Assembly: GCA_964035545.1 (NCBI GenBank)
Contig: OZ037767.1
Span: forward strand, 22,212,628-22,276,627
Direction: 5' to 3'
Length of the DNA stretch: 64,000 bases
From: Bugula neritina
Lineage: Eukaryota > Animalia > Bryozoa
Made by a program: the position numbers and the translations under genes. Below are positions 21,720 to 61,200 of the stretch, in pieces (within the stretch, counting starts at the first letter, position 1; each line of letters opens with the position of its first letter). The notes under the pieces were generated by a model. That model saw only the letters and a program-made list of their open reading frames with translations. It was not told the DNA's origin and searched no databases.

Positions 21720-24700
21720 TTATTTTTTCTTTAGGACATTTGTTTCAAACTGCTTTTCCACGTTTCCAGCCGGCCAGTAGTTGGCAACGACATAAGTTTT
21801 CCCTGATGATGAGACAGCAACTCCAACTCCTACTTCCTTAGTTTCCTTCCACAACACTTGTGTAAAGTGACCTACAAATACCAACAGATAGGTTACACAT
21901 ATATTTACCAGAAGTAAGCCATTGTATTTACATGAAGAGTTTATTCAAAAGCATAAATAAGTTTGCAAAGAATATGCTTTTATAAACATATTTTTTGTGA
22001 AATGCTTTGCAAAGCAAGCGCAACACTAGTTGTCTGCTTTGATAATTTAGAAGGAAAGAAAATAAATGGCAAATTTGATAATTATATGCTGTGGCTTTAC
22101 GTTTTGGCTTTTTGGTGCTATATTACCAATGATAGCAGTAGTATCAATAACAATTATATTACTTTGTCACAAAACTGTGGGTAGCAGTGTGACGAGTTCG
22201 AAAAGTCTGGTAGTCAGAAGTGTATAGACAAGTAGCATACAGCTTGCTAATCCAGTTGTGAGTAAATAGAGTTGTGGATATAAGTAGACTTTATTCCTTT
22301 AGTAAGATATGCACAGATGAATTAATAAAAATGAACTCCGAGAATGAACTTATAAAAAGGAACTGATTTGTAAACACAACTGCCTCAGTATTTATAGTAA
22401 ACAAAACACTCTAGGACATTCTCAAGCATTCCAGTATAGAAGATTCTAGTAGAAAACATTCCTCACATGCCAATACTATTTATAGAAAATCAAAACAAAA
22501 CAAAACATTGGAATTTCCATGGTTATTTCGCAATTATTGCGCAACACCTTGTTTACATTGCTGGGCAGTAGTTAACATGACTAATGAAAACAATAACAAT
22601 GAACAATGACCCATCTCTTTGATCAGTCTAGAATATTTATGAACATTCGTGTATAATCATTAGGAAAAACCCGGTAAGTCTATAGGTATATGTCCCCTCA
22701 GAATTTGTGACAACCCCCCATTCTAAGAGAAATTATCTTGATCATTTCTCCTAACTACTTAAAATTCTGAGTCAATTCGACTTAGATAATCGGCTCCAAC
22801 ATCGTCCTTTCCTTTGATTGACTCCACCTTGATTCTGAAGTTCTGTAAATACATAGCCCATCTCATCACTCTGCTGTTTCTTACTGTACAGGTCCAACAA
22901 ATCATCTTGGCATTCTTCTCTTTCCTTATTGTGATCAATAATTCCAGCACCAGCAGCATCTAGAGTCATCACAGCTCCAACAGTCATAGAGTCGGTAGGT
23001 GTCTCCCGCTCAAAATATTTCTTCAGCATGTTGGCATGGTATGTTCTCCTCTTCCCTCTGATGTTGATAATGTAGTCATTCAGTCTGACTTTCTCCTCAA
23101 TATTGAATGGTCCTTGCCAATGCATCAGCAATTTATTTCCATTCGTAGGTAGAAGAATGAGCACTTTGTCACCAGGTCTGAAGTCTCTCTGCTTAGCTTT
23201 CTTGTCAAAATAGTGTTTGTATCTTTTTTGACTGTCTTTTAGCGAAGCTAATGCTATCTCCATCATGTCATCTAAACGCTCTCTCAATTCAAAAACATGC
23301 TGATAGCAGGTCTTGACTTCATCGGCAGTGTCTTCTTTTGTCCAAAGTTGTCGCAGGATGTACATTGGTCCACGCACAGTCCTTCCATAGAGTAACTCGA
23401 ATGGGGCGAAGCCTGTTGATTCCTGTGGGACTTCTCTATATGCAAATAGAGCCGCATTGATGAACCGATGCCACTGTCTTGGCTCTTTAGCACACAACTT
23501 TTTTAGCATATTCTTGAGGGTTCCGTTGAACTTTTCCACAAGTCCATTGGCCATTGCATGGTATGGTGAGGTAGGAAGTTGTCGCATGTCAAGTAATCTG
23601 GTAAACTCTTTCATGTAGTCCGAGATGAATTGAGTTCCTTGGTCGCTTATCACCTCCTCTGGTATCCCAACACGACTGTATATGTCAAGCAGCGCTTCAG
23701 CTACAGTAGCTGAGTCAATATTCTTCAATGGTGTAGCTTCAGGGTATCTTGTAGCATAGTCAACTAAAGTTAGGATGTAGCGATGTCCTTTCTCACTTGG
23801 AGGGTTAATTGGTCCGACTAGGTCTATTGCACATCTCTTGAATGGGGTGTCAATTAGTGGAGTTTCCTGTACTGGAACTTTCATGACTGAGCCTTTTTTC
23901 ACCGTCTTCTGGCAAATATCACATGATTGACAGAAACGTACGACATCTCCGTTTAGTCCTGGCCAGAAGAAGTTGGAAAGCACTCTATCAGTGGTTTTCT
24001 TTACTCCTAGGTGTCCGCTCATTATGCAGTCATGAGCTTTCTGTAGAACTTCCTTCCTCAGTGAACTGGGTACCATGAGTTGTTTAACAGGTTTTACACT
24101 GACGGACTTCGAGTCGGTGTACTCACGGTACAGAATCTTATTCCTCACCACAAACCTAGTGGTGCATCCCTTTTTCTCCTTCACTTCTTTTGCATCGAAG
24201 AAACGTTCCAATGTGGGGTCATCCCTCTGCAGTCTGGCTATTTCATCCTTCCCTATACTTAATGGGTTAGTATTTGAATCAATCTTCAGTGGTTTGTCTC
24301 CTGACTTTTCCTTGACAGCTTGAGCTCTTGTGGTTACGGCGCAGTCCTTCCAGTTTTCCAGCGGCTGGTCAGCTGATCTCGCTCCATCCACATTCCCAAT
24401 AAGCAGGTCACAAATCGTCTTGTCCATTACTGCAGCTTTGACGACACCATTGTAAAATGGTGAGCGTACTGAGATAAGTGCCCACTGAGCCTCCCTAACA
24501 CTTGCATCAGCCATATTCAGATAAACTGATTCTCCAGTTAAGTGTTGAGGTTGCACATACTTTGCATTGACTACAATGCAACCACAGCCGGTGTCGCGCA
24601 TTACAGTAGCTCGTTGGCCATTAACTTCCGCATCAAATATCGCTGTGCCCCCATCTTTGAATTTAGGTCCATTCTTGCAGACAGCAGCGTTGACAAACTT

Positions 24701-27700
24701 TTTACCATTTACTGTGATTTCCGTAGGTTCTTCCACTTTAGATGAGATTCCTGGATCTGTGACCACAGTCTTATTCTGAGTAGTAGCTATTGCAGCCGCA
24801 GCATGCACTGACCTTCCACCATACTTTCTGCAGTCTGAAGTATTGTGGTTGTTCATCTTGCAATGTGAACAGTACTTCTTCCCTTGCCGTGGGCAGTTAC
24901 GAGCAATGTGTGACTTATCTTTGCAGATGAAGCATGCCCCATCGCTTTTACTTCCTTGTTCAGCATTCATGCTACCGGCAGGTGTGTTTTCCATCCTTTT
25001 TGTATTAGTTTTCTTTGTCTTTGCTAGTTTCCTTCCACGAGCGTGCAAGAACAGCGACGCTGCATCACACATATCCTCACTGCTGTTGTAGGAACTTTGC
25101 TTTAAATGCACAGCTAGGTCGTCTGGGCATGACGATATAAATTGTTCAGTCGCCACTAGTTTGGCTATGTCCATGCCCCCTGAAAGCTCCACCCACTTGT
25201 GCACATAACTTTCTATCCTAGTGAACAGTTGGGCAGGAGTTTCATCCTCGTAAGCTTCTGCCTCTCTGAGCTTTTTTCTGTAGCCCTCTTGAGTCAAGTT
25301 AAAGCGCTCCAACAAGGCTTCTTTGACTTTTTTATAATCTCTACGATCGGTAGGTGACAACCGGATGTAAGCTTCTGTTGCTGTACCCCTTAGGTACTGA
25401 CTGAGATGGTAGGGCCAATCTCCCTTGTCCCAGTTACATCCTTCGGCAACCCACTCGAACCGCTCTAAATAGCTATCCATTTCATCCACCTTCTCATCAA
25501 AGAATGGTATTTTTGGTTTTGGTTTGTTAGCTATTTCTAACCTGGTGCTCTCATGTCTTGAGTGCTCCAAACTTGTGTTAGCTTTCAGCTTTTCCATATC
25601 TAATTCATGTTGTTGTCTTCTCTCTTCTGCCTCCTGGTCAGCTTTAACCTTGAGTGCCATTGCCTCCTGATCAGCTTTTATCTTCATCTCCATTAGGGCT
25701 TTCTCATTTTCTTGCCTGATCTTTTCTGCCTCACGCTCTAATCTACGCTCCTCTCGGTCCTTTTCTTTTTCCTCTCGGTCCTTTTCTTTTTCCTCTTGTG
25801 CAGCAACAATGGGTAGGTTCTTTTCAACAAAAGCTATGAGCTTGTCATCCACCAGTCCAAGATCTTTACCCATCTGTGTCATTCTCTCCAACAACGCCAT
25901 AATGTCTCAACAACTGTTAATTAATCCTGTGTATACTCACGTTGTAACTGATAACTTCCCTGTGTGCGACTGAGACTTCCCGGAGCAGCCCCCAATTGTC
26001 ACAAAACTGTGGGTAGCAGTGTGACGAGTTCGAAAAGTCTGGTAGTCAGAAGTGTATAGACAAGTAGCATACAGCTTGCTAATCCAGTTGTGAGTAAATA
26101 GAGTTGTGGATATAAGTAGACTTTATTCCTTTAGTAAGATATGCACAGATGAATTAATAAAAATGAACTCCGAGAATGAACTTATAAAAAGGAACTGATT
26201 TGTAAACACAACTGCCTCAGTATTTATAGTAAACAAAACACTCTAGGACATTCTCAAGCATTCCAGTATAGAAGATTCTAGTAGAAAACATTCCTCACAT
26301 GCCAATACTATTTATAGAAAATCAAAACAAAACAAAACATTGGAATTTCCATGGTTATTTCGCAATTATTGCACAACACCTTGTTTACATTGCTGGGCAG
26401 TAGTTAACATGACTAATGAAAACAATAACAATGAACAATGACCCATCTCTTTGATCAGTCTAGAATATTTATGAACATTCGTGTATAATCATTAGGAAAA
26501 ACCCGGTAAGTCTATAGGTATATGTCCACTCAGAATTTGTGACATACTTATACACAATCACTGTACATCCTGTGCAAGTGTTTATAATCATGCAGCACAG
26601 TTTGAGCTTGTGGTTTGAGTTTGATATAAAATTATATAGGATTCTAGTCAAGAGCATCACAAAGTGGACCTACACTATTGATTAAAACTTTTTAAAAATG
26701 TTGTTTACAAATTCAAACTTGAGCTTCAAATAATAAACATTATGGTCACTAGTATTTCTGTACTATTGTGTAATTTGGTTTAAGAACTTCAATCAAATTG
26801 AGCGTAGCAATGTTGTGTTACTACTTAAACTCTTACAGACCTGTGCTCATGCCAAAACCCGGCTCATCGAAGCTGTAATCTTGAATCTCATTATACCACC
26901 ACTCTACACCTAAAGAGTACAGAAATACAATATGAGATTAAAGATGGCATACGGGATCAAGCTGAGAACAAAACATGCACTGATAGTTATTTTAGTCATG
27001 GTGATGATCTTTTTGTTTGTAATGAAAAAGTTAGGATGTCTGGTTGCAATTGTAGTGAGATGATATCTTATATTTTAAAATTATATATGTACAGAGTTAT
27101 AATAAAACTTTACCTCGTTCTCTTTCTCCATTGTTTACCCCCATGCCATGCTCACTATACAAATTTTCTCCAGCATTCTCTCTTTCTTCTAAGGTTGTAT
27201 GCTTCATTTGGTCTATGCTTGCAAGGTGTTGGGCATATTTTGTTGCCATGTTGCAAAGCTTTGGTGACAGGGAAAGAGGTGGAGAACCATGCGAGGTCCT
27301 CAATTCATTGTGTTTTTCCAAGCTTTGTAGTTGCTGCTTGGTCCATTTTGTGCCTCCTTCATATGGCTCAGGTTCTGAGGGTAGTTTCTGTTCAGGCACA
27401 TCTGGAATTTGTCTATCATCAATATCAGCATCTTGTTCTGTTTCTTTTGATTTGCCACTGTCTTGTGCTACTTCAGCTTTTTTCTCATCCTCTGCTTTTT
27501 CCCTTTCAAGCCTTTCTTGTTCTGCTCTTTCTCTTTCAATCCTTTCTTGTTCTGCTCTTTCTCTCTCAATTCTTTCTTGCTCTGCTCTTTCTCTTTCAAT
27601 TCTTTCTTGCTCTGCTCTTTCTCTTTCAATTCTTTCTTGCTCTGCTTTTTCTCTTTCAATCTGCTCCTGTTCTGCTCTTTCTCTCTCAATTCTTTCTTGT

Positions 27701-29510
27701 TCTGCTCTTTCTCTCTCAATTCTTTCTTGTTCTGCCTTTTCCCTCTCAATCCTTTCTTGCTCTGCTCTTTCTCTCTCAATCCTTTCTTGCTCTGCTCTTT
27801 CTCTCTCAATCCTTTCTTGTTCTTCTCTTTCTCTTTCAATCCGTTCTTGCTCTGCTCTTTCCCTCTCAATCCGTTCTTGTTCTGCCTTTTCTTTTAAAGC
27901 TCTCTCTAGAGCAGCTTTCTCTTCTGCAACTCTTTTTATCTCCGCCTGAAAATGTAATGAGATATTCACAAGCAATTTTTTCAATAACCATTGAAAAGTA
28001 AAGCATCAATGACAGTTATTAAAGTATATATATCAAGTATTACATTTTATTACAATGATGATAGTATAAAAAATTGCAATACCTCATCAATGAAGTCGTC
28101 ACAACTTTCTCTATCACAATAGGATTCATGTTTTCCACCAATAATGCCACCATTGTTGACTACAAAATAAGTATAACACTTGATAACGTAGTAATTTGAC
28201 CAAATGCAACAACAAAATATAATTTTTCTTCAGCATGCAGGTAGTTTTTACTTTGTAGAGCCATATATGCAAAATACAAAACTATATATACTTCCGTCTA
28301 GCAGAGTATTTCAAACAATTAGCGCTGTTTGAAATTGTTAGTCCAATTATTAGCCTTTAGGCATTTCCAACTCTCACTGAATGTAAATTTTGTTTCAAAA
28401 GTAGTTGAACCAAAACAGATAAAAATGTTCTTCAAAGAATCATATAAATCGAAGATCATCCAGGTACAAAGATGTAAAATGTTAAATCATAGGCCACACT
28501 ACATGCTACAATATTTAATCAAAACAGCTTTTTAAATATTCTACACAGCTAGCACTATTACCAGATTAATTTAATGATGAATATTCCATTCTACAAGACT
28601 TGGGAACAATTTTTAGCAGTTTGAACTCATGAAATATTTAAATGTAAGTATGTGGTGTAAATGTGATCTCTTGTGCTAACTATGTAACTTAGTACTTCCT
28701 TAATAAGCTCAAGTATTATCCAACTATTCTAATTTGAGTCATTATGATAAAAATACACATTAGAATTGTCTAGTAGGTGTAAGTTTAGTTGGATGTTTTC
28801 TGCAGTTACCTGTTCATACATAACCTATAATCACATATTAAATGTGAGAGAACTCTTTTCTTGGGAGAGAAGAAGACCATAGCGCCAGTGGATGGATATG
28901 CCACAAGATCAGATATGAAAGTGGGAACATTGAATAGCAAGGACACAAGTAACAGAGTTGGATGGAAATAACTAATTGAGTTGGCTATGCAGAACCCGTT
29001 AAAATGGTTGCGGTGAGAAATAGTGGAAAGTAGTGAGAAACTATTTACATGTATTTGTTTTTACATTTTTGCTGCAGCTGAGATTTCATTGGTGCAATGT
29101 GAAAGTAACATGCTGATATATAAACTTAATAAATGTAGACAAAATTACTATGTTACCAATAATTAGCACTCTTGAGTTGTCATTTAAGCAAAATGCTGAT
29201 GAAGTAACTTGTAAAAACTAAAACCAGTTTGGTAGGTCTTGTAAGTAAATTGACAATTGACAATATATATTTATGAGAAGCTTTGAATTTCTGGGCTAAC
29301 CTGGAAAAAGCTCTAACTAATTAGTAATTGATAGACCTAAATCTTCCACCATTTGCAAATAAAACCTTTTACCCTTAATGTAACACAATGTGCAGCATAT
29401 TATACAGTATTTGACTTACTGAGCAGCAATGTTTGGTTGTCAATCTCTGGAAAGGTTCCGCTCTGGAGAAATGAGACACAGATGATAGCTAGTGCAGCCA
29501 GCGGAAACAT
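21720..29510 (-). CDS. Secreted CAP-superfamily protein: signal peptide + (ERAEQERIER)n + GAPR-1/GLIPR2-like CAP domain (~406 aa)
   Basis: Exons 29510-29420, 28159-28083, 27945-27114, 26909-26841, 21871-21720 (1221 nt). CAP motifs HNELRTSHG, GENL, WYNEIQDY, TGHFTQVLWKET..VGVG, YVVANYWPAGNV. Confidence 0.88.
22165..22712 (-). repeat. 3' LTR
   Basis: Direct repeat of 25997-26544; preceded on the minus strand by the PPT TAGAATGGGGGGT (~22713-22725). Confidence 0.95.
22772..25900 (-). CDS. Gag-protease-integrase polyprotein (1042 aa); RT absent, only the RNase H tail remains, in another frame
   Basis: Two CCHC knuckles (CFICKDKSHIARNC, CSHCKMNNHNTSDC), protease MRDTG, HHCC Zn finger, DDE core (IDLVGP, SDQG, VEKFN). 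RNase H end NSRVMRWAMYLQNF...GADYLSR at ~22885-22759. Confidence 0.92.
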   Translation of the reverse strand: MALLERMTQMGKDLGLVDDKLIAFVEKNLPIVAAQEEKEKDREEKEKDREERRLEREAEKIRQENEKALMEMKIKADQEAMALKVKADQEAEERRQQHELDMEKLKANTSLEHSRHESTRLEIANKPKPKIPFFDEKVDEMDSYLERFEWVAEGCNWDKGDWPYHLSQYLRGTATEAYIRLSPTDRRDYKKVKEALLERFNLTQEGYRKKLREAEAYEDETPAQLFTRIESYVHKWVELSGGMDIAKLVATEQFISSCPDDLAVHLKQSSYNSSEDMCDAASLFLHARGRKLAKTKKTNTKRMENTPAGSMNAEQGSKSDGACFICKDKSHIARNCPRQGKKYCSHCKMNNHNTSDCRKYGGRSVHAAAAIATTQNKTVVTDPGISSKVEEPTEITVNGKKFVNAAVCKNGPKFKDGGTAIFDAEVNGQRATVMRDTGCGCIVVNAKYVQPQHLTGESVYLNMADASVREAQWALISVRSPFYNGVVKAAVMDKTICDLLIGNVDGARSADQPLENWKDCAVTTRAQAVKEKSGDKPLKIDSNTNPLSIGKDEIARLQRDDPTLERFFDAKEVKEKKGCTTRFVVRNKILYREYTDSKSVSVKPVKQLMVPSSLRKEVLQKAHDCIMSGHLGVKKTTDRVLSNFFWPGLNGDVVRFCQSCDICQKTVKKGSVMKVPVQETPLIDTPFKRCAIDLVGPINPPSEKGHRYILTLVDYATRYPEATPLKNIDSATVAEALLDIYSRVGIPEEVISDQGTQFISDYMKEFTRLLDMRQLPTSPYHAMANGLVEKFNGTLKNMLKKLCAKEPRQWHRFINAALFAYREVPQESTGFAPFELLYGRTVRGPMYILRQLWTKEDTADEVKTCYQHVFELRERLDDMMEIALASLKDSQKRYKHYFDKKAKQRDFRPGDKVLILLPTNGNKLLMHWQGPFNIEEKVRLNDYIINIRGKRRTYHANMLKKYFERETPTDSMTVGAVMTLDAAGAGIIDHNKEREECQDDLLDLYSKKQQSDEMGYVFTELQNQGGVNQRKGRCWSRLSKSN
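25978..25994 (-). promoter_or_regulatory. Primer-binding site, tRNA-Pro-like
   Basis: TGGGGGCTGCTCCGGGA 2 nt inside the 5' LTR versus the canonical tRNA-Pro PBS TGGGGGCTCGTCCGGGA (2 mismatches). Confidence 0.8.
25997..26544 (-). repeat. 5' LTR
   Basis: Direct repeat of 22165-22712. Confidence 0.95.
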
Positions 29511-46224: not shown

Positions 46225-49200
46225 TCACGTGATTCCATGACTGTATAAAAGGATGATGGACAGAGTGAGCAGCAGTATTCGACCATCTGATTGGACAAGA
46301 CCAGCGCCTCCTAGCCCGTAAATGTCGCAGCTGATGCAAAACTAAAATTTCACAATTTTGAAAGTTTCAAGACAATGTTTAGTAGTGAATAGAGTTAACA
46401 TGGAAACAACAGGAAATAATATGAAAGAAAATGTGCCAAAATGTAATTATTAATTGATAGTAGTAGTAGGTGGATGGTCCTGGCTCACTCTTCTTCCACT
46501 GTCGAGTCTTCGACTCGCCAGTGTCAGAAGAGCGATCCAGGACGCATCCACCTACTACTACTCTATTAGTAATATTATAAAAAAGTAGTGTAATATTATA
46601 AAAAGTAGTGTAATATTATAAATTTTATTTAGAAAAATATTTTTTTTTAAATAAGAAAAAAATATTTTTAAGGTGGATGGTTCTAGCTCACAATATAATA
46701 CTATTAGTAAGATAATAAATTATTATACGCTGAGAATATAATAATTTAGTGTTTAAACGTTATAACTTGGAAATGTGGGTTGAGATTCTGTAGATTCTAT
46801 TATATTACCATCGCTCGTTGATATAACTAATTTATTACCAACTGCTCCTTGTAATTTAGGAATAGCGTAATTATTTATATTATTTATTGTAATAAGATCT
46901 GAAATATTTATACCCGTTTTTACAATATTACCATCACTCGAAAGCATTAATAATAATTTTTTAATTAGTTAAACTATTATAATAAAGTTTTAAATATACG
47001 TAATCAAAAGGTAGTGCATTAGTAGCGTCTTCACTCGGTGTATTAACAAGAATTACGTCATTAGGTTTATGACTCGGATAATTATTCGAAAGAGCTATTG
47101 TAAACGAAAAATTATTATTAGCGTTAACAACTTTATTAATATTTATTTTACTATACGGAACATTATGTTCAGCACCGCTAATAGTATAAAATATATTTTC
47201 TTTAGACTCGTCAAATGGATTTACGCTATTACGAATATGTAAACCTAATTTTTTATCAGTCCAATATAATTCTTTCGTTTTATTATTAGGTGAACTTTCG
47301 TTATAAAATTGTAATAACGCGTGCGTTATTTCTATAGATTTATTGACTAAATAATCATTAATTAAATCTACCGTAAAGCTATTAATATCTTCGTAATAAT
47401 AAAATTCGCGTTTAGGTATAATACTCGTAATATACGCTTTATTAGTCGTTATATTGACTTTACTAAATTTATAGATATTCATTTATAATTATAATAAAGT
47501 TTTATTAATACGTAATGAAAAGGTAACGCCGCGGCGGTTATTTCACTAGCGGGAGTATCGGTTAAAATTACGTCGCTAGGTTTATGACTAGGATAAGTTT
47601 TTGATAGCGCTATTGATATTGAAAAGTTTTTATTAGCTTCAATAACTTTATTAACGCTTATTTCGCTAAACGGGAGATTATGTTCGCTACCGCTTATATC
47701 ATAAAAAGTATTTTCATCGGATACTCCGAATATTTCAGCGCTATTTCGAACTTGTAAGCCTATTCGCTTATCAGTCCAATAAAGTTCTTTAGTATTGTGA
47801 GCTTGTTCACCGTAAAATTGTACTAGGATATTCGTTATTTCAATCGGTTCATCAACTAAAAAATCTTTAATTAACGTACCTCCGAATCCGCTAGAACTAC
47901 CGTCGTAATAAATAAATTCTGATGGAATTACGATATTTGTAATATACGGTTTTTCATTTATTATAGTGGCTTTAGCCGAATTTCCAAAAATATAAACCGA
48001 ACTCATTTATATAAGTAATTTATTTATAATTAATTGAGGTGACTCGTGTTTAGACATTTCTTTAAGCCAATATAAACACAAGTGTCCGCATATAACGGTA
48101 TTAAATTTTTGTACTCTTTCGGTATTATAAAATATAGGCGGTTTTAAATATTTCATTATTTCTAGCGGTGGGTGAAGTCCAAAACTATCGAAATAATATT
48201 TTTTATTTCCATTTTTATACCAAGCTACCCAATGAGTACCGTTACCCATTAAATCGTCTAAATTTAATATACCGCATTCTTTTTTACGCGGTTTATCGGG
48301 TAAATCGTTTCTTGAAAATACTCCTCTAAAAAATAGTATTTTTAACTTTTTAATCGTAAACTCTAATTCAATATTTGATAGAGCTTTATTCGGTAATTTT
48401 ATATTCATTTATTATAGCCGTAAGGAACCGTTGTTATACCGTCTTTGAGTATAATTCTCTTATCATCCTCGGCCGACAGAGCTACTTTATTTATAGTTTC
48501 AGCGTACATCGTATGCTTATGACTTCTTAACACGTTCATTGTTCTAAGCTGATCTCGCCGCGTTAATAAACACTCTTTATAATCATCAAATGTTATGCGA
48601 TTATCACGAGTTGTTTTATTAATACCCTTACATTTTTTCTCTTCTATATCATCCATCTTGTAAGAATATAATTTAGCTCTTAGGCCTACAAATTCCGTAA
48701 TTTGTTTACCGCCGGCTTCATCCTTAAACTTCCCTATCACTTTTTTATTTTTACCGGTTGGTATACCCGATTTATGATTTTTTGGATAATTACTCGTGTC
48801 AAATTTATTTTCAATATCTGGTAATATATCTTTATAAAAATCTTCTGTTTTTACGTGATACATTAAACTATCCGTATCCGTAAATAATAATTGCGCTTTA
48901 TTATTATATTTATGTTAAATATACTCGTAATGAAAGTCATACATAAGGATTTTACTAATATCCAAAATTGCGGCTCCCAAATATACGGGTTTATCAAACT
49001 TTAATTTAGTTACGTTCATATGAACGGCTATTAAATTTTCGGAAAATATAGTGAAGCTTTTAAAGTTTGGTTGATTAGTAAACTTTTTAGCTTCGCTTTC
49101 GCTAGTAACCAATTTAACGTTAACTCTATTACGAATATCTTCCATCGTTTTACCGAACACGGAATTATTCATTAGCTTAAAGAAATCTTTTTCAAAATCG

Positions 49201-52200
49201 CTTCGAGCTAAAGTTCTTAGTTCGGTATTTAATTTTATATATTTTTCTAACTTATTAGATTCATTAAAGGTTATACCTCTATGAATTTTTGTTAATTTTA
49301 AGCCATACATAAGGCATTGTTTTAACGCCTCGTAATGTATAATATAATTTTTTTTATTATTTAAGTTTGGCACTAACTTTTCTACTTTGTTAATCGTTAA
49401 CCTTTCGGGGCAAAATGGATAATCTTTATGCGAGTCGTGTAATTTTTTAGAATATTCTAAATCTACTTCTAAAAAGCTGGGCAGAAAATTTAAACTTTTT
49501 TCCAAGTTTTTACATCGCTTTTCAGTCATCCACTTAAAATTACCCGTAGGTAAATTTTTGGACATAGCCCAACCGTATAAATTATTAGCGTCTAAATAAG
49601 TAATATAACTGCTAGGTTCGCTAGCGTTATAATTTTCCATGTACTTATTATTGGCTTTAGCGTGTCTATGACTGATCATACTTACACCACCCCTAATAGC
49701 CTTTTCAAAGAAAAGTAGTTGGTTAACGTCGGTAATTGGATCCAACTTTAATTCGGTAGTTTTAAGCATAGCGTCCCAACTTAAACCCGGGGCCGTATAG
49801 TACCAAGCGGGATCTAATTTGTAATATTTTAAACACACGTTTCTAAAGTTTTCAAAAACGTCGGCTAAATGTAATACATCAACTTTCATATATAAGTTGT
49901 GATATTCTTTAAATGTTCTCATATTAAATTCTTGCCAAACTTTTTGAGCGTGTATATAATCTTCTTCCGAAATATTTTGCTCGGTTAAGCTTGAATAAAA
50001 CTTTTCTTTAGGTGGTAAAGACGTTTCATCCAACACGCTTAGATTATTAAAATAGTCATACGGAAATACTCCTTTTCTTAATACCAAGTCTAATTGTTTT
50101 TCCTTATAATATTCACCTAAGTGTTTAAAGTCGTCGCGTTTTAAATTCGCCACTAAACTCGCTAAATTAGAACTCATAAACTTATACGAGTCTAAAAATC
50201 GAATTTCACGCGTAACTTTAATTTTTTCACCTTCTTTATTGGTAAATTCGTCTACTAATAATTTTTTACTAAAAGATATATATTTTTCTTCGGTATTAGG
50301 TATACACGAAGGTTCACCGCCTAAATTTTTAATAAATAAGTGGGCGTCATAACCCGACAAATTATGAATAAATACTGGATAAAATTTTGGAACTTTATAA
50401 TTTAAATTACAATTTTTATGCGCGGCTCCTCTATAATTTCCGGTTAAGTGACAGTGATCTCTTACTCTGTCATTACTTAATTCTTCTTCGCATATATAAC
50501 AAATTTTGGCCAACTCAAAAAACTTTTGCTCGTTAGTCGTAATTTGCATAGTTTTAGCGAATTTATGTTTTTTATAAATATTTTTAATATCGAGTTCTAA
50601 TAGTCTTATAAATTGTTCGCCAATATCTTCGTCTTCAGTTTCTTTAGTATAACTTCTATAATTACACTCGCCGGTAATGCTTACTATATAATATCCAAAA
50701 CCCGACGGTTCGTGTTGTTGATATTGATTAGTATAACTTTCTTTAAAATTAGGATTACAGCCTTGTATAGGCTTTGTAAAACATTCAAAATCCGCGTATA
50801 CTACAAACGGTACTCTCATACCACGACAATAATGACTAGACTGAAATTTTATTTTATCTTCTAATTTTGGAAATGTCGTAGTCACGCTATCGTTTTTTAA
50901 GCACCAATCTTGATGCTTTTTTAATGATTCGTTAGATCGAAACGAATTCATACAATTTACGCAAATATGTTTAGCGTTAACGCGTTTATTTATTTGCGAA
51001 CCGAGTAATTTATTTAAATTTTTAATATACGTATAATGATTTTTTTTGCCATCAGTTATATAAAGTAAATTTATAATTTTATTCCGACTGCTAGTTTTTC
51101 TCCATAAATTTATCGTTTTATTGTCCCACATAAATACATTAATTCCTATTGAGGGATTAACTTTTTCAAAAGCGTCGATGGATTCTTTCGTAGCCGGAAA
51201 TTCTACTCCTTCCCATAATAATTTATTAACGTGCTCTTTATAATTACTAATTCTTTCAACATTTTTATTAACCGGATAAACTCCCATTAAAATGGCCCAC
51301 ATAAAGCATTTATTGTCTTTATTTTTTGGATTTATTACGGCTTTCTTTAATTTAATTTCTTTTGGAAGATCAATCCACGATGATCCGTTAAGAGGTTGAT
51401 ATTTATTAATATTAATTTCCATTTTTTTAATGGCTTTAAACGTCCAGCTACTTCCTTTCGCGTTTAATGAAGCAAAATTTTCTTTTATACGTTGAATTAT
51501 TTCATTGTATACTTCATTAATATTTGTAGAAGCTAATATAATTTCGACATTTGATGTAAATGGCATAGTTTCTATAATAATTTCTCCGGTACTTATATTA
51601 TGCTTTTTCATTTCGCAATATATAAATATTTTAACTTTTATAGTAGGTTTTAATAATTCTATTACATTTAATTTTACTAGTTTACTAAACGAATCTATAT
51701 CGTATTTGGGTAAACCTTTAATTTCATAAGTTTGAAACCAACCGTTAGCGGCTTGTTCTTTAAGTTTAGGCTGATTATATAAAGCCATAATTTTATCCTT
51801 AATTGGATTTATAATTTTTGTAATTGGCTTTATAACCCATTTTTTTATATTACGCGTAGTTTGCGTAAATATTTCTCGCATAATTTTTTTTACGGGTGTA
51901 GGTATTAACGGGGCTTGTCCTATATTTGGAACGGGTTCGTCCATAGGCGATAATAGCCGTATAAGTTCGGCTTTTTTTAATCGAGAATATCGTTTCAATC
52001 CTCTTTCTTTAGCTAAAGCTTTTAAAGCTTTTACGGTAATTTTTGTATTGAACTCCATTTATATAATATATTCTTTAATAGTAATATCAATTTTTAATAT
52101 TATTACTTATGTAAAATAAGTAATAATACTGAGAAACTAACGTGAGCTGTTTTCTTCTTTTAGTTTATAAGCTTCGCGTTTTAAAATACTTTTTATATAA

Positions 52201-55200
52201 AAATATTTATTAATGTTAGGAATTTGTTTTCTCGTTCTAAAATTAATTTCTTTAAGAGATATATTATTAATTACTGGTATATATAAATATTCGAGTAACG
52301 GTGTATATTTTTTTTGTTCGGCTTCAGCTATTAGTTTATCGAGTAATTCAACGGTAAGATCCATATTATAAAATAATAAAATAATAAAAATCATTTTTTT
52401 ATATAAATGGATTTTCGACGAGAAAAATTAGAACTCTTAAACGATGAAATTATTAAATTAGAAAACGAATACGAGCAAAAACTTAATTGTTTTAATTGGC
52501 TATCGAAATCGTTAAAAATAATTTCGGGATTATGCGGTACAATGAATTTAATATGCGGTGTTATTATTACGGCGTTATTAAACGCTAACGTTACTAAACA
52601 AACGTTATTACCATTATCTATAATAGTAAGTATAATGAGCGTAATTACTACTTCTATTTCTTCTCAAGATACTAAATTAATTAAATCTACGTTAATGTAT
52701 TTAGATATATATACCTTTATAAAAGATTCAAAATTAGAAATTAATTCTATGTTATCGAAATTTTTAAGCGACTCTCATATAGACGAAGAAGAGTACGACG
52801 CTATAACCGAAAAATATAAAAATATTAATAGCGTAATATCGGATAAAATAAGCGACATAATAATCGCTCGTAACAACGTTTGTTAATTACTTGCAAAATG
52901 CAATTAATTAAAAAAGGGAGTTCAATATAAAAATATCCGTATATTTATATATGTTTTCTTTAACTAATGTAAAGCGTCATTTCTTCTTTTTTCTATTTCG
53001 TCTTCGGCGTATTTTAGTTTAGTAAAGAATGACGGTATTCTAGCCGCCGCGTAATTCATTAAACTTACGTTAAGTTCTTGAATTATTTCTTTAGTTTTGT
53101 AAATAGTTTTTATTTTTATTTTTCCATTATCTTCTTTATAAATAATTTCTTTTTTATTATTATAAGTAATTTCTTCAAGTAATCCACATTCATTAGTTGA
53201 ATTATTCATTTCGTCTAATATATTAAATTTTTTATATATAATTCTTTCTTTAATATCACCGCCTTCGTATACTCGTTTTTCACAATCATTGTTTTTATAT
53301 ATCGTTTCGGTAATCGGGGTGCCGTCGAGGCTTTTATAAGTAATTACTGTTGACATTTATATATGTTTTCTTTAACTATAACAGCATGCCTAAAAGAGGA
53401 ATGTTTTTAAACGGACTATTCGGACCTAAAATTAAACCTTCACCTTTTATATAGCTAGAACCTTGTTTTAAATATAAACCGTTACCTTTCATTAAATTAG
53501 ACGACGCGACTGGTTTTAAAGTAATAGAACCGTTTAAATTAGGTTCTACGGAACATACGCATCCGCCTTTTTTCAAATAAAGACCTTTACCTTTAATAGC
53601 TCTTTCGACTCCGGCGCTAGCGGCTCCCGAAAGTACGCCGGGTATAATAGTTTTTAATAACGTAGGTATTACTCTCGTGGCTATACCCAATAGAGCTCCT
53701 AAAAATCCTCCGCTCATTGACGCGTTAGTTTTTACTAACGACGGAGACATTTCGAGCGTTATATTTTTTTTATTCGCGTTTAACGCTTTTAAAATATTAT
53801 CGTTTTGCGTTTTCGTAACGACTAGTTTATCATTTCCGCTTTCGAGAGGTAATTTAATAACGCAACCCTTATTGCTTCTATAAGCGTTCATTATTTTTTG
53901 TTTTTGCGCCTGCGGCACGTTTCCTATAATTTCGCAATAACCCATTTATATAATACATTAAACTTCTCTTAAATGAAATCTTATTGAAAGTTGTTCACCG
54001 CTAAGATCTAATAAATTACCTTTTTGATCGGTTACCGTAACGGTTAACGTCTTAATATATTTAACGTGAACGGGTAAGTATATTAAATTATGAGGTTTTT
54101 CTATTATTTTATATCCCGGACTAACGCTCGGAAAAAATGAATAGATAACGGGTTTATAAGTACCATCGATATAACTTCCGTTAATACAATCAACTTGTAC
54201 GTGTATAGCGTTTATATTTAAAATATTTACTATGTTCGTAGCTTCAATATAAGGTTGATTGTATATTGCCGCGTCAAAACCTAAAACGTCTCTTAGAGAA
54301 TTTTCAATGTTAAAATCTATCTGATAATTTTGTTTTAATTTAAGTATAATTCTAAAAGTTACTTTATTAGCTTGTAAAGTAATACCGTTTCTATTACCCC
54401 CCTCTTTTACTATTTCGTCTTGAATAGCTTCTTCTAATTGATCTAATTCATATACTCCAATTGGTAACGAAACTAAATACCACGTAATGCCACCGTCTTT
54501 AGACCATCTATAGGAATTTCTATCGGCACTAATGTTTGGAAAAGAATAAAACGTATCCAAACTAATAAGACACATTTCGTATTTTTTATTTTTATTTAAT
54601 TCTATAGGCGGATTAAGTTGAGTAATTATTCTCGTTTTAGTATCGGTAACTCCTATAGTCATCGTTTGTTTAGAGGCCGTATTATCAGCAATTTCTCTTA
54701 AAATTCTATTATCTATTTATATAACTTTTAAATTATTTCCATCGGAACTGAGAGACATAGTTTTATCCGATAAAATTAGCGCGTAAGCTTGAGTATTAGC
54801 CGGCACGTTTTGACTAAACTGAACTCTTAATTGAATATCGGCTACGCTACTTTTAAGAGCCTCGCTTTGCTTACTAACGTCTATTACGAACAAAGCGTAA
54901 AGATCTTTATATTCGGAAGGTAATACGTTTGAATAAGCGATTAGCTCGTTTATACCGTAATATTCTCCGCAAAACTTAGAAGCGTCTCCATACACTCTAC
55001 TAAATTTCATTTTAGCGAAATCTATATCGTAATCAACCTCGGGATACCGCTCGCTGTTTAGCATCGCGTATACGCTTTTAACGTTAACGTGATCGAATAC
55101 GGCCGGATTAGCCGTTTGACTTTCATTCTTATCCGTTTGAAAACCTACGATAATATATTTAGGTTTTTCGGTATCTCCTCTAGAACCCAAACGCCACGTA

Positions 55201-58200
55201 AAGTTAGTAGTTTGCGGCACCGCGATACTATCACACCATCTAGATCTATAAATTAGGGGTAGTTGCGCCTTACTTTCTATAATTTTATAGAGTTTATGCT
55301 TCATTTCAAAACTAGGCGTTACGTGAGGCATCCACCACGATACTTTATCTAACGTTATTTTTCCCGCGTCTACGCCGTTTGCTCTATAAATAGCGTTATC
55401 GTTAGTATCGCGTACTAGCGTTAATTGATGTTTTATACCGTATAATACTTTTTCGTAATCGTCGGCGAATCCGAACAAATGTCTGAGATCCACTTTAATA
55501 CTAAAAGTACCTTTAGGATCTGGCTTTTGTATAATATAAATTTGACGCGCGTTAAAACCTAAATTAGCGGCGGCAGCGGCTGCGGTAGTATCTTTTGACC
55601 ACAACTGATTAAGACCTCTCGACTTACCGTAGTCGTCGGGATAAGTTAGTAAACCCATCATGGTCGAAGCGTGTCCGGGATTATTTATATATATTCCAAG
55701 TCGTGTCCGTCGAGTTGATATCTAATACTTTTAAACAAATAAGCCATACCGTTATTCGTTAACGTTATTAAGTCGGCGTCGGCGTAAGCGGTTCCATCGG
55801 CTTTAGTTAAACGACCTTCGATAATCAAATAACTTTTACTCGGCTGAACGTACAAATCTTGCTGATTAATAACTATTCTAATTTCACTGGGAGTATTTAA
55901 ATTCGTTCCCGTTACGGGTTCATATTCGTGTACCTGATCGCGTTCTACGCTCGTATCGAGTACAATTTTTTGTGTAATATTTAGAGAATCCATTTATTAT
56001 AGTAAAATAATTTCTTAATAAGCTATAGCTTGTCCGCTTCCTTCTAAAATATTACTTATATTACTATTATTTAATATATTTTTAGTTTGATTAAGCTTTT
56101 GTAGTATAGCTTGACTTTTAGCGTTTAACTTTTTTTGTTTTCTTTTTTTAATCGCGTTAACAATTTTTTCACCGGCCGCGGTACCCGCTTTAGCTATAGC
56201 CTTTTTACCTAATTCTCTTACGCTGGAATTACTAGCTATTTTAGTTACTACATTTTTAATGGTATCAAATATTCCACCACCGGCGTAGTGTCTTTGTAAT
56301 CGTTGTCTTTTATCGTAAACGTACATTTATTATACGAGAATACTTTTATAATAGTCACGAGTAATAATTTTCATTCTAAGTAATTCGTCTAATATAGACA
56401 CAATTTCGTTTCGTACTCCCGTATTTCCGGCTTTAGCGCTAGAAATTAAAAGTTCGAGTCGTTCTACTAAAGCGTTAGGATCAGACGATAAATATACTAC
56501 TCCAACACCGACTTGCCTTTTAGCTTTTTTACTATCAGCGAGTTTCGCTCTCTGAGGATATAATTGTTCCCAAATAGGTCTAACAATATTTTTCCATTTT
56601 TCACTATTTTTATCTATGGGACCGTGTTTACTTTGATATATAGCGCCGCTATTATCGAGTATATTAGCGTAATTCGCTAAATCATTATCATCGTATCCTA
56701 TAGGCGTTTTACGCGTTAAAAGACTTAAAAGTCCTCTAGTCGCCAAATATTCTTCGTTTTCAAAAATTATTTTACCATCGTTAAAGCTTATAGGTTTCGT
56801 ACCAATAACGTGTCTATTACCATCCCACTTTACGTTATAAGCGCCGGGTTCTAAGCCAGCTAAAGCGTTTTGAGTAAATTCATCTAAATTTATAACTCCA
56901 TCCGTTATAGCCGGTTGAACATTATAATTGGGTAATGTAAGCAATTGTTTTAACGCGTCAGTCGTTTGAGCTTGCGAAGCAATTACGGGTTCAAAATATT
57001 TTTCTTGAGCCATCGCGGCATTTAATTCTCGCTCGCGTTCTCGTTTAAAATTTTCTTTTAATTTATTCTTTCGAGAAATAAAATCTTGTACGGTTTTATC
57101 TCTTTTTATAGGGTCGTGAATCTTTAAGTAACTCATTTATTATATATTAATTTGTGTCTACTTTTTATGGACACAAACACATTTGTGTCTACTTTTTATG
57201 GACACAAACACATTTGTGTCCACTTTTGTGTCTACTTTTTATGGACACAAACACATTTGTGTCCATTTTTGTGTCTAGTGTCCACATTTGTGTCCACATT
57301 TGTGTCTAGTGTTCACTATAATCGTTCTAAAACGTTTAAATTTACCCAAGAATTTTGAGAATCGGGATAACCTAACCATTTTACTAAAGCCTTTTTACCT
57401 TTCTTTTTAATTACGCGCTCTATTCTATACATTTCTTGACTCGTCTTTTGTAATTCCTGTTCGTAAAAAGATCCTTGAATTTCTTCTCCTCCCGAGTCAG
57501 TTAATTTATAAGTAGTCGGATTAGTATATAATATTTTACTTATAGTAAACACTTCCTCCGTCCATCTAACTGTATAACCTTTTTCAAACGTTCGTTTCTT
57601 ACGAGGTATACGCACTCTATCACCTATAGCAAATTTAGGTTTAGAAGGCGCGGGTAAGTTTGGATATAATTTTACGCGTACTTTATTTTCGTTAGAAGGA
57701 TTACTAGCTTCAATCGGTGTCATTCCAATAGACGAATGTTTAGTCTCGTTATATCGTTTTACTAAATCTTTTAGTACGTCTATATATTTATAAGTATTAT
57801 TAGCCGAAAAATATTTAAACATTCGCTCTTTCATTGTTCTATTCCACCTTTCTACTACGCTAGACTTTTCTTCATTTTCCGTAGAATATAAGTCTATTAA
57901 AGACTTTACGTCTTTGTTATAAAATTCTTTTCCCTTGTCAACCCATAAATGTTGTGGCTTACGACGAGTTAAAATTGTTTTTAAAGCTAAAGCCGTCGCT
58001 TTTCCAGTCTTATTTTTTAAAGGTATTATTCAACCGTATTTTGAAAACACGTCTATTACCGTTAGTAAATATTTATAACCGTTATTAAATTTAGCAAATT
58101 CAGTCATATCAACCAAGTCGGCCGCCCAAATATTATCGATACCCGATACCCAAACTCGTCTTTTACGAAATTTTTTTTGTACAGGTTTATGTAGTTCTTC

Positions 58201-61200
58201 GGCTAACTCGTTCGTCCATCCCCATCCTAAACGCTTTTTCGCTCCTATTATTGCCGAGGCAAAACGACTGTGTCGCTGTTCGGCGGGTGTAGGATTAGGT
58301 ATAGCTTTCAGTTCGTCTAGCATATTTTTATCGCATATTTCGTTTCTAGTCTTAGTATCTTTATTAAGCGCGTAACATACGTCGTGTCTCATGGCTATAG
58401 CGTCATCTCGATCTACCGGTTTACTCCATTCTTTAGGAGTCATGTCGTCATTTAAACGCTTATTTAATTTAGTACCCGGTCCTAAAAAATTATGGCCTGG
58501 ATAATGCAATTCAAAAGGTAAATTATTTATTAAATTATTCGCTAAACCCGACCCAACGAATGTAGTTTTTTTACATCCGCATTGACCGCAATTACCGTAA
58601 CCCATTAGTCTATTATTTTTACTTACTCTCTTTTCGTAATTAAGAGTTTTCGTTTTAGTTTTACACTTACAACAATACATTTATTATAATAAATGGAAAT
58701 AGAAAATCTGTCGTGGAAAAACGAAATTAATCGTAATAATAATCCTTTACTTCCTAAAAGTATAAGAGGTCTTATCGTTGGAAAATCTGGATGCGGTAAA
58801 ACTACGTTACTTTGTAACTTACTATTACAACCTAATTGGCTCGATTACGATAAACTTATGATTTACGGTAAAAGTCTTTCTCAACCCGAATATATAAATA
58901 TGAGGAAGGCTTTCGAACGTAAATTAACTAAAGAAGAAATTTTAAATTTTTTTAAAAATAGTGACGCGATAATAAATTCGGGTATAAACGTAAATCGTGT
59001 TTTAAAAAATAGTAGGGGTAACGGTAATATAGACGCCGAGTTTATCGAATCTAGTGACGACGTTTATGATCCTAGCGAATTAGACGCTAGTAATAAAAAT
59101 TTAATAATATTCGATGATTTAATGTTGGAAAAACAAAAAACTTGCGAAAGTTATTACGTAAGAGGACGACACAATAACGTCGATTGTTTTTATTTGTCGC
59201 AAAATTATTTCAAGCTGCCTAGAAATACTATTCGAGAAAACGCTAATTTTATTTGTTTATTTCCTCAAGACGGAAAAAATTTAAATCATATATATCAAGA
59301 TCACGTAAACGGAGATTTAACGTTAAACGAATTTAAAAACTTTTGTTATAAAGGATGGCAAAAACCTCACGGCTTTATTACTTTAGATCTTTCTTCCTCA
59401 AAAAATAATGGAAGGTATAGACACGGGTTAGACGAATTTTATATACCGTAATAAATGAGTGTTTATAAATTTGGTGAATCATTAGCGAAAGCTAAAAAAG
59501 AAAATTATATCGAAAGAGTCGTAACTAAAAATAATAACGTTTTTATACAATCTTTTAGTACAACGATTAATATAGGAATGTTATTGGGATATATAGTGGA
59601 TAAACCGATAGAATTAAAATACGCTTTATTAGAATTTCAACATCTTCCAGCTAATAATAATAATCCTTTATATTGGAAAGATAAAAATTTAACTTTAATT
59701 ATTGGTGATGTTAATAATCCTCTCGAACACAATACTAAAGAATATATAATTCAAGGAGGCGTTGCACGAGTAAAAATACCTATGTTGGAATATATTGAGA
59801 GCGATAAAAATATTGGATTAGTATTACACTGCTCAAACGATTATACTAGTCGTAAACCCAATGACATTACGGTTAATGACAACGCGCCTATAGCTTTACC
59901 GTTTGAATTAGTGTCGTTAAAACTTTACTACAATTATAAATGAGTGTTTATAAATTCGGAGGAAGCGAAAAAACAAAAATAGATACAAAAAAATTCGTTT
60001 TAATAAACGGTAGTAGTACTCTTACGGGTACATTAGATATGGGTGAAAATAAAATATCTAGAGTTATTAATCCGGTTGACGATCAAGACGTAGCCACAAA
60101 AAAATACGTTGACGATACGAGTATACCAAAAATACAAAACCCTGTTAATCAGTTAACTATATCAACCGACGATGGACGCGTTATAGATAGCGATTTAAAA
60201 GTTGATGATGTCGTTACAAAAACTAATGTATCTAGTTACGCCGTACCCCTTATACGAGACCCGAGTGAAAAATTAACCGTATCAACTAATACGGGTAATA
60301 TTGTAGATAGTAATTTAAGCGTTAGCGATGTTATTACGACTAATAATATAAATAATTTCGCTATAAATAAAATACAACCAGCGAATGAAAAATTAACCGT
60401 TTCGACTACTTCGGGTAATGTTGCGGATAGTAGTTTAAGCGTTAGCGATATTATTACGACTAGTAATATAAATAATTTCGCTATGAATAAAATACAACCA
60501 ATAATTGGAGGTAAATTATTAATGCTTTCGAGTGATGGTAATATTGTAGAAACAAATATAAATATTTCAGATCTTATTACAATAAATAATATAAATAATT
60601 ACGCTATTCCTAAATTACAAGGAGCAGTTGGTAATAAATTAGTTATATCAACGAGCGATGGTAATATAATAGAATCTACAGAATCTCAACCCACATTTCC
60701 AAGTTATAACGTTTAAACACTAAATTATTATATTCTCAGCGTATAATAATTTATTATCTTACTAATAGTATTATATTGTGAGCTAGAACCATCCACCTTA
60801 AAAATATTTTTTTCTTATTTAAAAAAAAATATTTTTCTAAATAAAATTTATAATATTACACTACTTTTTATAATATTACACTACTTTTTTATAATATTAC
60901 TAATAGAGTAGTAGTAGGTGGATGCGTCCTGGATCGCTCTTCTGACACTGGCGAGTCGAAGACTCGACAGTGGAAGAAGAGTGAGCCAGGACCATCCACC
61001 TACTACTACTATTGATATATAATTTTGCAGTTGATATTATTAACCTATAATCTACTAGGAAAATTAGCTGATTTCTACATCAGTCTTGGTAATTCATATT
61101 AATTGAAAGATCGGAAACCTAGGCCAATAATTTATAAAATTTTTTAATAGTATTTTGGTGAGAGATTGAATTTAAATGTGGTAACTACAAAAGTTGAATA

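Follow-up and report, generated by a model that had tools for sequence, protein, structure and literature searches.

A strand-biased terminal fold-back of a Bugula neritina Polinton is likely to function as folded single-stranded DNA

In a 64,000-nucleotide stretch of the Bugula neritina genome (contig OZ037767.1; hereafter the window), we characterized a Polinton whose ends each form a 104-nt fold-back. This terminal fold-back is a real end structure and has probably been selected. Because the fold holds up, lies flush with the end of the element, recurs in sister copies, and is biased to the 3′-terminal strand, it is likely to function as folded single-stranded DNA. The polymerase of the element keeps a predicted protein primer; for this reason, the fold likely restores a double-stranded end from which copying can start, and a direct role as primer is less likely. 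The strand-specific structure of the end suggests that the element passes through a single-stranded intermediate, and it opens the question of priming to testing. To our knowledge, the exit of a Polinton from the chromosome and the start of its copying have never been shown, and the papers cited below offer models.

The Polinton occupies positions 46459–61010 (14,552 bp) and is flanked on either side by the 6-bp target-site duplication ATTGAT (46453–46458 and 61011–61016, forward strand). Its terminal inverted repeats (TIRs) are 496 bp long, and the left TIR (46459–46954, forward strand) begins with (AGT)3AG. The right TIR (60515–61010, reverse strand) is identical to it over the first 454 bp, and four differences occur up to offset 496. 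The element possesses the (AGT)2...(ACT)2 end motif, which is described for Polintons in the cited part of PMC8097293. Its TIRs, target duplication, and length lie within the Polinton/Maverick ranges given in the cited part of PMC10748475 (100–1500 bp, 5–8 bp, and 13–25 kb, respectively). Whereas 0.06 occurrences of the terminal 18-mer would be expected in the window, there are four. At 46671–46691 (forward strand), the outer arm is present once more (19/21 identical to 46468–46488), lacking both the AGT end and the partner arm. With its mirror at 60778–60798, this copy sits 212 bp inside each TIR and folds at just −8 kcal/mol. A longer version of it was observed in sister copies, at contig joints.

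The fold-backs at 46459–46562 and 60907–61010 are reverse complements of each other and fold flush with the terminus. The 3′-terminal strand is the reverse strand at the left end and the forward strand at the right end. The initial annotation had described a GC-rich palindrome with a mirror copy, and its coordinates proved exact. The GC content is 53% in the 104-nt end, compared with 21% in the remaining TIR and 31% in the element. On recounting, its description of the pairing also held, with 18 perfect terminal pairs, 45 of 50 Watson-Crick pairs, five mismatches, one bulge, and a 3-nt loop closed by a C-G pair, which reads C-GAA-G on the 3′-terminal strand (46509–46511; GAA at 60958–60960 in the mirror). 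The five mismatches had been called spaced; the number is right, but two of them are adjacent and form a tandem. All of the mismatches lie inward of the 18 terminal pairs.

Folded as DNA, the 3′-terminal strand has an energy of −48.6 kcal/mol (z −14.1) and the 5′-terminal strand −41.8 kcal/mol (z −12.4), and none of 200 shuffles was as stable in either case. At equilibrium, however, the 104-bp duplex (−144.0 kcal/mol) is favored over two hairpins (−90.4 kcal/mol). Duplex DNA thus disfavors the hairpins, and any role of the fold implies a single-stranded stage. The mismatches on the 3′-terminal strand are A·G, G·T, tandem G·A/A·G, and G·A (four G·A and one G·T in total), and the loop is GAA, whereas the 5′-terminal strand has C·T, A·C, T·C, C·T, and T·C, with a TTC loop. 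Tandem G·A pairs are stable in DNA. The mismatches are predicted to be stable on one DNA strand only. Under random single substitutions, the chance of at least four G·A among five mismatches on either strand is 0.0004–0.007, a range that depends on the share of transitions and comes from a test picked after the pattern was seen. With four of five mismatches being G·A, the fifth G·T, and the C-GAA-G loop all on the 3′-terminal strand, it is improbable that a duplication under random decay produced the fold. The tip had also been likened to the stable C-GNA-G mini-hairpins. According to the cited part of PMC13037366, GNA alone of the 64 triloops forms a stable mini-hairpin, and the two G-C pairs of GCGAAGC are deemed essential. 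The GNA loop is indeed present here, but the tip is not a full GCGAAGC mini-hairpin, because the pair beside the closing C-G is T-A.

Sister copies were sought by sequence words, which gave 23 runs, six of them with at least half of the words. Four runs, representing at most three samples from two studies, were examined as Logan contigs; such contigs merge copies, lose rare forms, and represent integrated DNA only. Unrelated flanks precede positions 46454–46459 in three runs (at least 2, at least 3, and at least 8 contigs). Therefore, the end of the element is real and is present in multiple copies. The sister copies, from at most three samples, retain the fold-back. All 12 informative pieces, among the 24 listed of 205, have the orientation of the window; they comprise five joints between a flank and the outer arm and seven between the inner arm and the unique part of the TIR. 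The flip and flop isomers of parvoviruses and poxviruses had been proposed as a parallel, and the flop isomer was unseen in these pieces. Similarly, indels diagnostic of the flop form (46476/46477 or 46544) do not occur in the complete indel table (four rows), and no strand-change joint was found in the sister-copy contigs. The suggested free-standing 104-bp mini-elements gained no support, as none of the 18 loose-end rows listed, out of 28, has a flank behind position 46562. A flipped end should produce 13 substitutions, and two (46533 and 46536) are listed in the contigs, in a table that leaves out changes close to contig ends. Since one 81-base contig carries the 46536 change without the other flip substitutions, these two more probably represent individual corrections from one arm to the other than flips.

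Nine sites in the stem vary among the sister copies. When each variant is set alone against the partner base of the window on the 3′-terminal strand, two restore a pair (46533 and 46536), two give G·A, two give G·T, and three give A·C (46490, 46497, and 46554). The two pair-breaking transversions, 46498 and 46532, both yield G·A on this strand, as determined by hand. The 46554 variant lies inside the 18 terminal pairs and accounts for 41–59% of the summed contig depth in the four runs; no change of its partner was seen, but that partner, 46467, is too close to the contig ends for listing. Partner changes for 46500 and 46490 were noted by eye, unphased, in run X4, in a loose-end row made up of two contigs. 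In one contig each of X3 and X4, the sequence departs from the window at 46492 into an unrelated tip (by eye). This tip has 9-bp arms around eight bases and prolongs the stem in register. The sister copies have the palindrome, with unphased partner changes, and the ends of related Polintons do not.

The latter ends came from 80 metagenome loci with related polymerases. An end was assigned at the point, marked by a CT(A/G)CT-like motif, beyond which the loci cease to be homologous. After the removal of three duplicate insertions, 11 distinct ends had been placed, by the motif and not by a target duplication. They belong to about three subfamilies, are partly decayed, and likely derive from few hosts. 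A terminal fold-back is absent from all 11. At best, their last 20 bases match at 10–13 of 20 positions, compared with 18 in the element of the window, and their last 110 bases fold at −3.1 to −13.1 kcal/mol, compared with −49.2 kcal/mol. Because none of these ends folds back, the hairpin is a trait of this Polinton family and not of the polymerase clade. Hairpins were flagged in nine of the 80 loci, but seven of these (all but L045 and L079) were rejected since they lie in flanking repeats or off the element end. A GTCCT(A/G)G motif similar to the outer-arm motif occurs near the hairpin-less ends. Three loci (L010:4315–4359, L028:10112–10156, and L034:6815–6859) have a short imperfect palindrome approximately 20–30 bases from the hairpin-less tip, which resembles the arm motif of the window. 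This short palindrome is a candidate for an origin or integrase site.

The search was extended to other collections. No fold-back was seen in 24 viral loci (L188–L211) whose polymerase is related, yet most of these contigs stop before the ends, two of them inside the TIRs. An ATPase scan of the viral contigs gave three pattern matches and no relatives. A generic end pattern matched 107 times in the viral contigs, and the sole strong hairpin (L131) was unrelated and set aside. It belongs to an RNA-phage contig that terminates in a long palindrome (L131:3884–3973), likely an assembly or amplification artefact. The exact 18-mer matched once in the viral contigs and four times in prokaryote genomes, always as single arms, which were taken as chance; the phage collection gave no match.

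The protein-primed B-family polymerase is encoded on the reverse strand in two pieces. The main piece (48915–52058) has 1047 residues; of 7989 candidates, 623 are homologous to it at E ≤ 1e-30. The gene is split in this copy, and homologues extend beyond the large ORF into a C-terminal piece (48405–48863). Exonuclease and polymerase motifs are conserved in 27 sequences, and two cnidarian-labelled relatives are 47–48% identical. Residues 90–370 were modeled with a pLDDT of 86. The first half of the model corresponds to a predicted terminal-protein (TP) domain with a Y-family little-finger fold (51393–51746; Z 7.7 to Pol eta, 7.0 to Pol kappa, and 6.9 to Pol IV). The second half corresponds to a predicted viral OTU protease domain (51009–51371; Z 7.6 to nairovirus OTU) with Cys251 and His341. 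These fold matches are middling (Z 6.9–7.7), yet the list consists of the two anticipated folds, in the anticipated order. Ser203 of the predicted TP domain falls after helix 2 and before the last strand, beside a glycine. The cited part of PMC11071308 places the linking residue of the terminal protein at the same position and describes the TP-vOTU layout. Ser203, Cys251, and His341 are invariant across the alignment (51 of 51), which comprises the sequence of the window and 50 of the 120 listed homologues. With both domains predicted and their key residues invariant, protein priming appears to be retained in this polymerase, which argues against the earlier suggestion that the hairpin replaces it. 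The polymerase has no match to PF03175, and its best viral fold match is Drosophila-associated adintovirus 2; an OTU-bearing PolB divergent from pfam03175 is the criterion for a Beta adintovirus or group 1 Polinton.

The polymerase also contains an Endonuclease VII-like (HNH) insert (50403–50564, reverse strand; PF02945, E = 2.8e-5; PHROG endonuclease VII, E = 1.4e-6). Its Asp534-His535...Asn551 residues are found in 27 of 27 sequences. Of the 120 homologues listed, many likewise carry the insert with these catalytic-type residues. The cited part of PMC10748475 calls the HNH insert unique, within its groups, to oomycete and nematode pPolB2. Among the 11 related loci, the nuclease segment is present in seven and the TP segment in five. 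The idea that the nuclease insert is tied to the hairpin was dropped, as hairpin-less relatives carry the insert.

A mechanism must fit the flush and strand-biased fold, the single orientation, the intact protein primer, and the absence of the fold from relatives. We tentatively favor, with somewhat less than even confidence, a single-strand end structure that works with protein priming, as at Streptomyces telomeres. From the sequence and the predicted domains, we infer the following course. Strand-displacement copying or single-strand excision would free the 3′-terminal strand, which would snap back locally, faster than 496-bp repeats 14 kb apart could pair. The fold would rebuild a double-stranded end. 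The polymerase would then begin the complementary strand at the terminal AGT repeats with its own predicted protein primer, displace the inner arm, and copy the whole strand. The products would be of unit length and all in one orientation. The inner arm may also shield the 3′ end and provide a template for restoring lost terminal bases. The bias to G·A pairs and the GNA loop, the retention of the structure in sister copies, the intact TP domain, and the single orientation are consistent with this course. In Streptomyces, according to the cited parts of PMC4513846 and PMC5449611, terminal proteins prime on folded 3′ strands with G·A-closed hairpins (PMC4513846), and truncated ends are repaired on the fold-back, the end patching by Tpg and Tap; the resemblance of the Polinton end to this system is by prediction only. 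Unlike it, the Streptomyces telomeres in these sources are bacterial, depend on an internal origin, and have several short palindromes with separate Tpg and Tap proteins. The Streptomyces telomere is therefore a working model for the mechanism only; the element is not a member of that system, and no homology is implied.

Several observations count against protein priming on a folded end. A flush, paired 3′-OH beside a single-stranded template would prime any B-family polymerase as well, so that the protein primer must win or self-extension must be harmless. The TIRs are already able to form a panhandle, in which the 104-bp duplex outcompetes two hairpins. The clade does not need the fold-back, since it is lacking in 11 of 11 related ends. 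The partner changes are unphased, and template switching from arm to arm would yield them without selection. Finally, three of the nine variant sites give A·C, including the frequent 46554 variant, for which no partner change was seen.

The next reading, mixed priming, is possible but unlikely. Once the terminal protein had started the first strand, the strand released by displacement or excision would self-prime its complement from the folded 3′ end. The product would carry a protein at one end, and its other end would be closed as a hairpin. If the integrase or the endonuclease VII-like domain nicked this molecule immediately behind the inner ACT, it would be opened again with its single orientation preserved. 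The flush 3′-OH, with 18 perfect pairs and mismatches only further in, fits such self-priming, as do the GNA loop and G·A pairs on the 3′-terminal strand and the invariant nuclease residues (27/27). The same model has been put forward for virophage and PLV palindromes in the cited section of bioRxiv 10.64898/2026.07.28.741278. The single orientation is compatible with self-priming, because the left end of one parvovirus, LuIII, is a hairpin reported in the flip orientation only (cited part of PMC1185569). However, the palindromes of the preprint occur preferentially beside non-pPolB replicases; the polymerase here is a pPolB and has a terminal-protein domain. Moreover, the nuclease segment of seven of the 11 hairpin-less relatives indicates no specific link, the extra nicking step is purely hypothetical, and the common 46554 variant may break the terminal stem. 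We regard it as doubtful that an animal Polinton lineage follows such a hybrid route, with protein priming of one strand, self-priming of the other by a G·A-stabilized hairpin, and an intermediate closed at one end that the integrase or the endonuclease VII-like domain reopens in a single orientation. If true, it would form a bridge between protein-primed and hairpin-ended viruses in one element.

It is improbable that the fold is a functionless by-product, in which the end was duplicated once when copying folded back on itself, and the arms have stayed paired since through template switching from one to the other. The missing fold-back in all 11 related ends would agree with this origin, and the other partial copy of the end in the TIR indicates that such duplications happen here. 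The 46533 and 46536 changes are exactly arm-to-arm corrections, and accidental annealing is named as an alternative in the cited section of bioRxiv 10.64898/2026.07.28.741278. On the other hand, template switching erases mismatches and does not select G·A on one strand. In addition, the internal copy has lost its partner arm (−8 kcal/mol), whereas the terminal one has been kept, and the second tip, of unrelated sequence, is palindromic again.

We also consider it quite improbable that the arms are two inverted duplex binding sites for an origin or integrase, or that the hairpin acts in read-through RNA from the outward-facing end genes. The recurrence of the outer-arm motif at 46671–46691 (19/21) and the similar GTCCT(A/G)G motif near hairpin-less related ends would suit binding sites, but neither 50 continuous pairs nor strand-specific mismatches are needed for them. 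Both end genes do face outward, and the RNA fold has −81.9 kcal/mol; however, an AATAAA, a weak signal in AT-rich DNA, lies approximately 65 bases before the hairpin, and Rfam gives two sub-threshold generic hairpin matches (at most 23.5 bits, where the cut-off is 75). Rolling-hairpin or poxvirus-like replication by hairpin transfer or cruciform resolution instead of protein priming is highly improbable: the mismatched terminal hairpin and the junction-resolvase-like domain in the polymerase speak for it, but it predicts approximately equal orientations where 12 of 12 pieces had one, without diagnostic indels or a strand-change joint, the two ends of this copy are identical, the terminal-protein serine is invariant, and no HUH/Rep-like gene was matched among the 19 ORFs scanned (nine of the 19 without any Pfam match).

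Like the parvovirus hairpins and the poxvirus flip/flop telomeres, the end of this element is a hairpin that contains mismatches and whose 3′ end is paired. Unlike these, the element shows no match to a Rep/NS1-like gene among the 19 ORFs scanned and no flop form in the contigs examined, its ends are GC-rich and not AT-rich, and it encodes a protein primer. Hairpin priming had been raised as a possibly new idea. It has already been proposed for the palindromes that terminate endogenous virophages (subtypes 1, 2, 5, and 6) and PLV subtype 4 in Halocafeteria seosinensis, which go preferentially with non-pPolB replicases (cited section of bioRxiv 10.64898/2026.07.28.741278). Those palindromes are likewise at the tip of the TIR, adjoin the target duplication, and belong to integrating double jelly-roll elements. 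However, their host is a protist and their replicases are mostly non-pPolB, whereas here the host is an animal and the pPolB has predicted TP and OTU domains. Mismatch types, strand bias, and flip/flop are not discussed in that section.

The element is otherwise like the Polintons/Mavericks and Beta-type adintoviruses described in the cited parts of PMC8502044, PMC8097293, and PMC11071308. It shares with them its size, TIRs, 6-bp duplication, and (AGT)n ends, as well as a pPolB with predicted TP and OTU domains, a likely integrase, an ATPase, a protease, and a capsid protein. It differs from these descriptions in its terminal fold-back, which the 11 related ends also lack. The cited part of PMC8097293 mentions neither palindrome nor hairpin. 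A hairpin end on animal Polintons is likewise undescribed in the cited parts of PMC8097293, PMC8502044, PMC11296320, PMC10748475, and bioRxiv 10.1101/2022.05.25.493380, 10.64898/2026.10.13.758929, and 10.1101/2022.07.28.501842, though Repbase or Kapitonov and Jurka 2006 may mention one. Terminal hairpins, in print mainly on virophages and PLVs without pPolB, can thus accompany a conserved terminal protein.

The gene content of the element is that of a Polinton. The capsid module comprises the MCP, the ATPase, and the protease, the last under the cut-off; none of the searches recognized a minor capsid protein. An adenovirus-type maturation protease is encoded at 48007–48408 (reverse strand; Pfam Peptidase_C5, E = 7e-4, under the curated cut-off) and an A32-like packaging ATPase at 58693–59451 (forward strand; Pfam Pox_A32, E = 2.3e-8). 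The double jelly-roll capsid protein is spread over two ORFs, and a feature at 54717–55993 (reverse strand) matches PF21738 (Pfam E = 3e-52). The likely integrase (57316–58680, reverse strand) has a C-terminal chromodomain, a PLA2-like domain joined upstream, and a stop at the 58030/58029 boundary. Its region gives the chromodomain and a weak transposase match (E = 5e-4), and Pfam rve was unmatched on the separate pieces. It presumably contains DDE-like motifs. Between the integrase and the next gene, an array of 31- and 12-bp repeats (57151–57313) folds at −23 kcal/mol. The ORFs 46961–47482, 47479–48006, and 59455–59943 resemble paralogues. The last ORF (59940–60716, forward strand) contains three repeats of approximately 40 residues and extends 200 bp into the right TIR.

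Elsewhere in the window, a Gypsy-type LTR retrotransposon occupies 22164–26372, with a 1044-residue open frame. Its LTRs are identical over 377 bp, which indicates a recent insertion. Two host exons (10884–11792 and 27097–28005, reverse strand) encode long charged five-residue repeats, and the latter is followed by what we take to be the start of a CAP domain.
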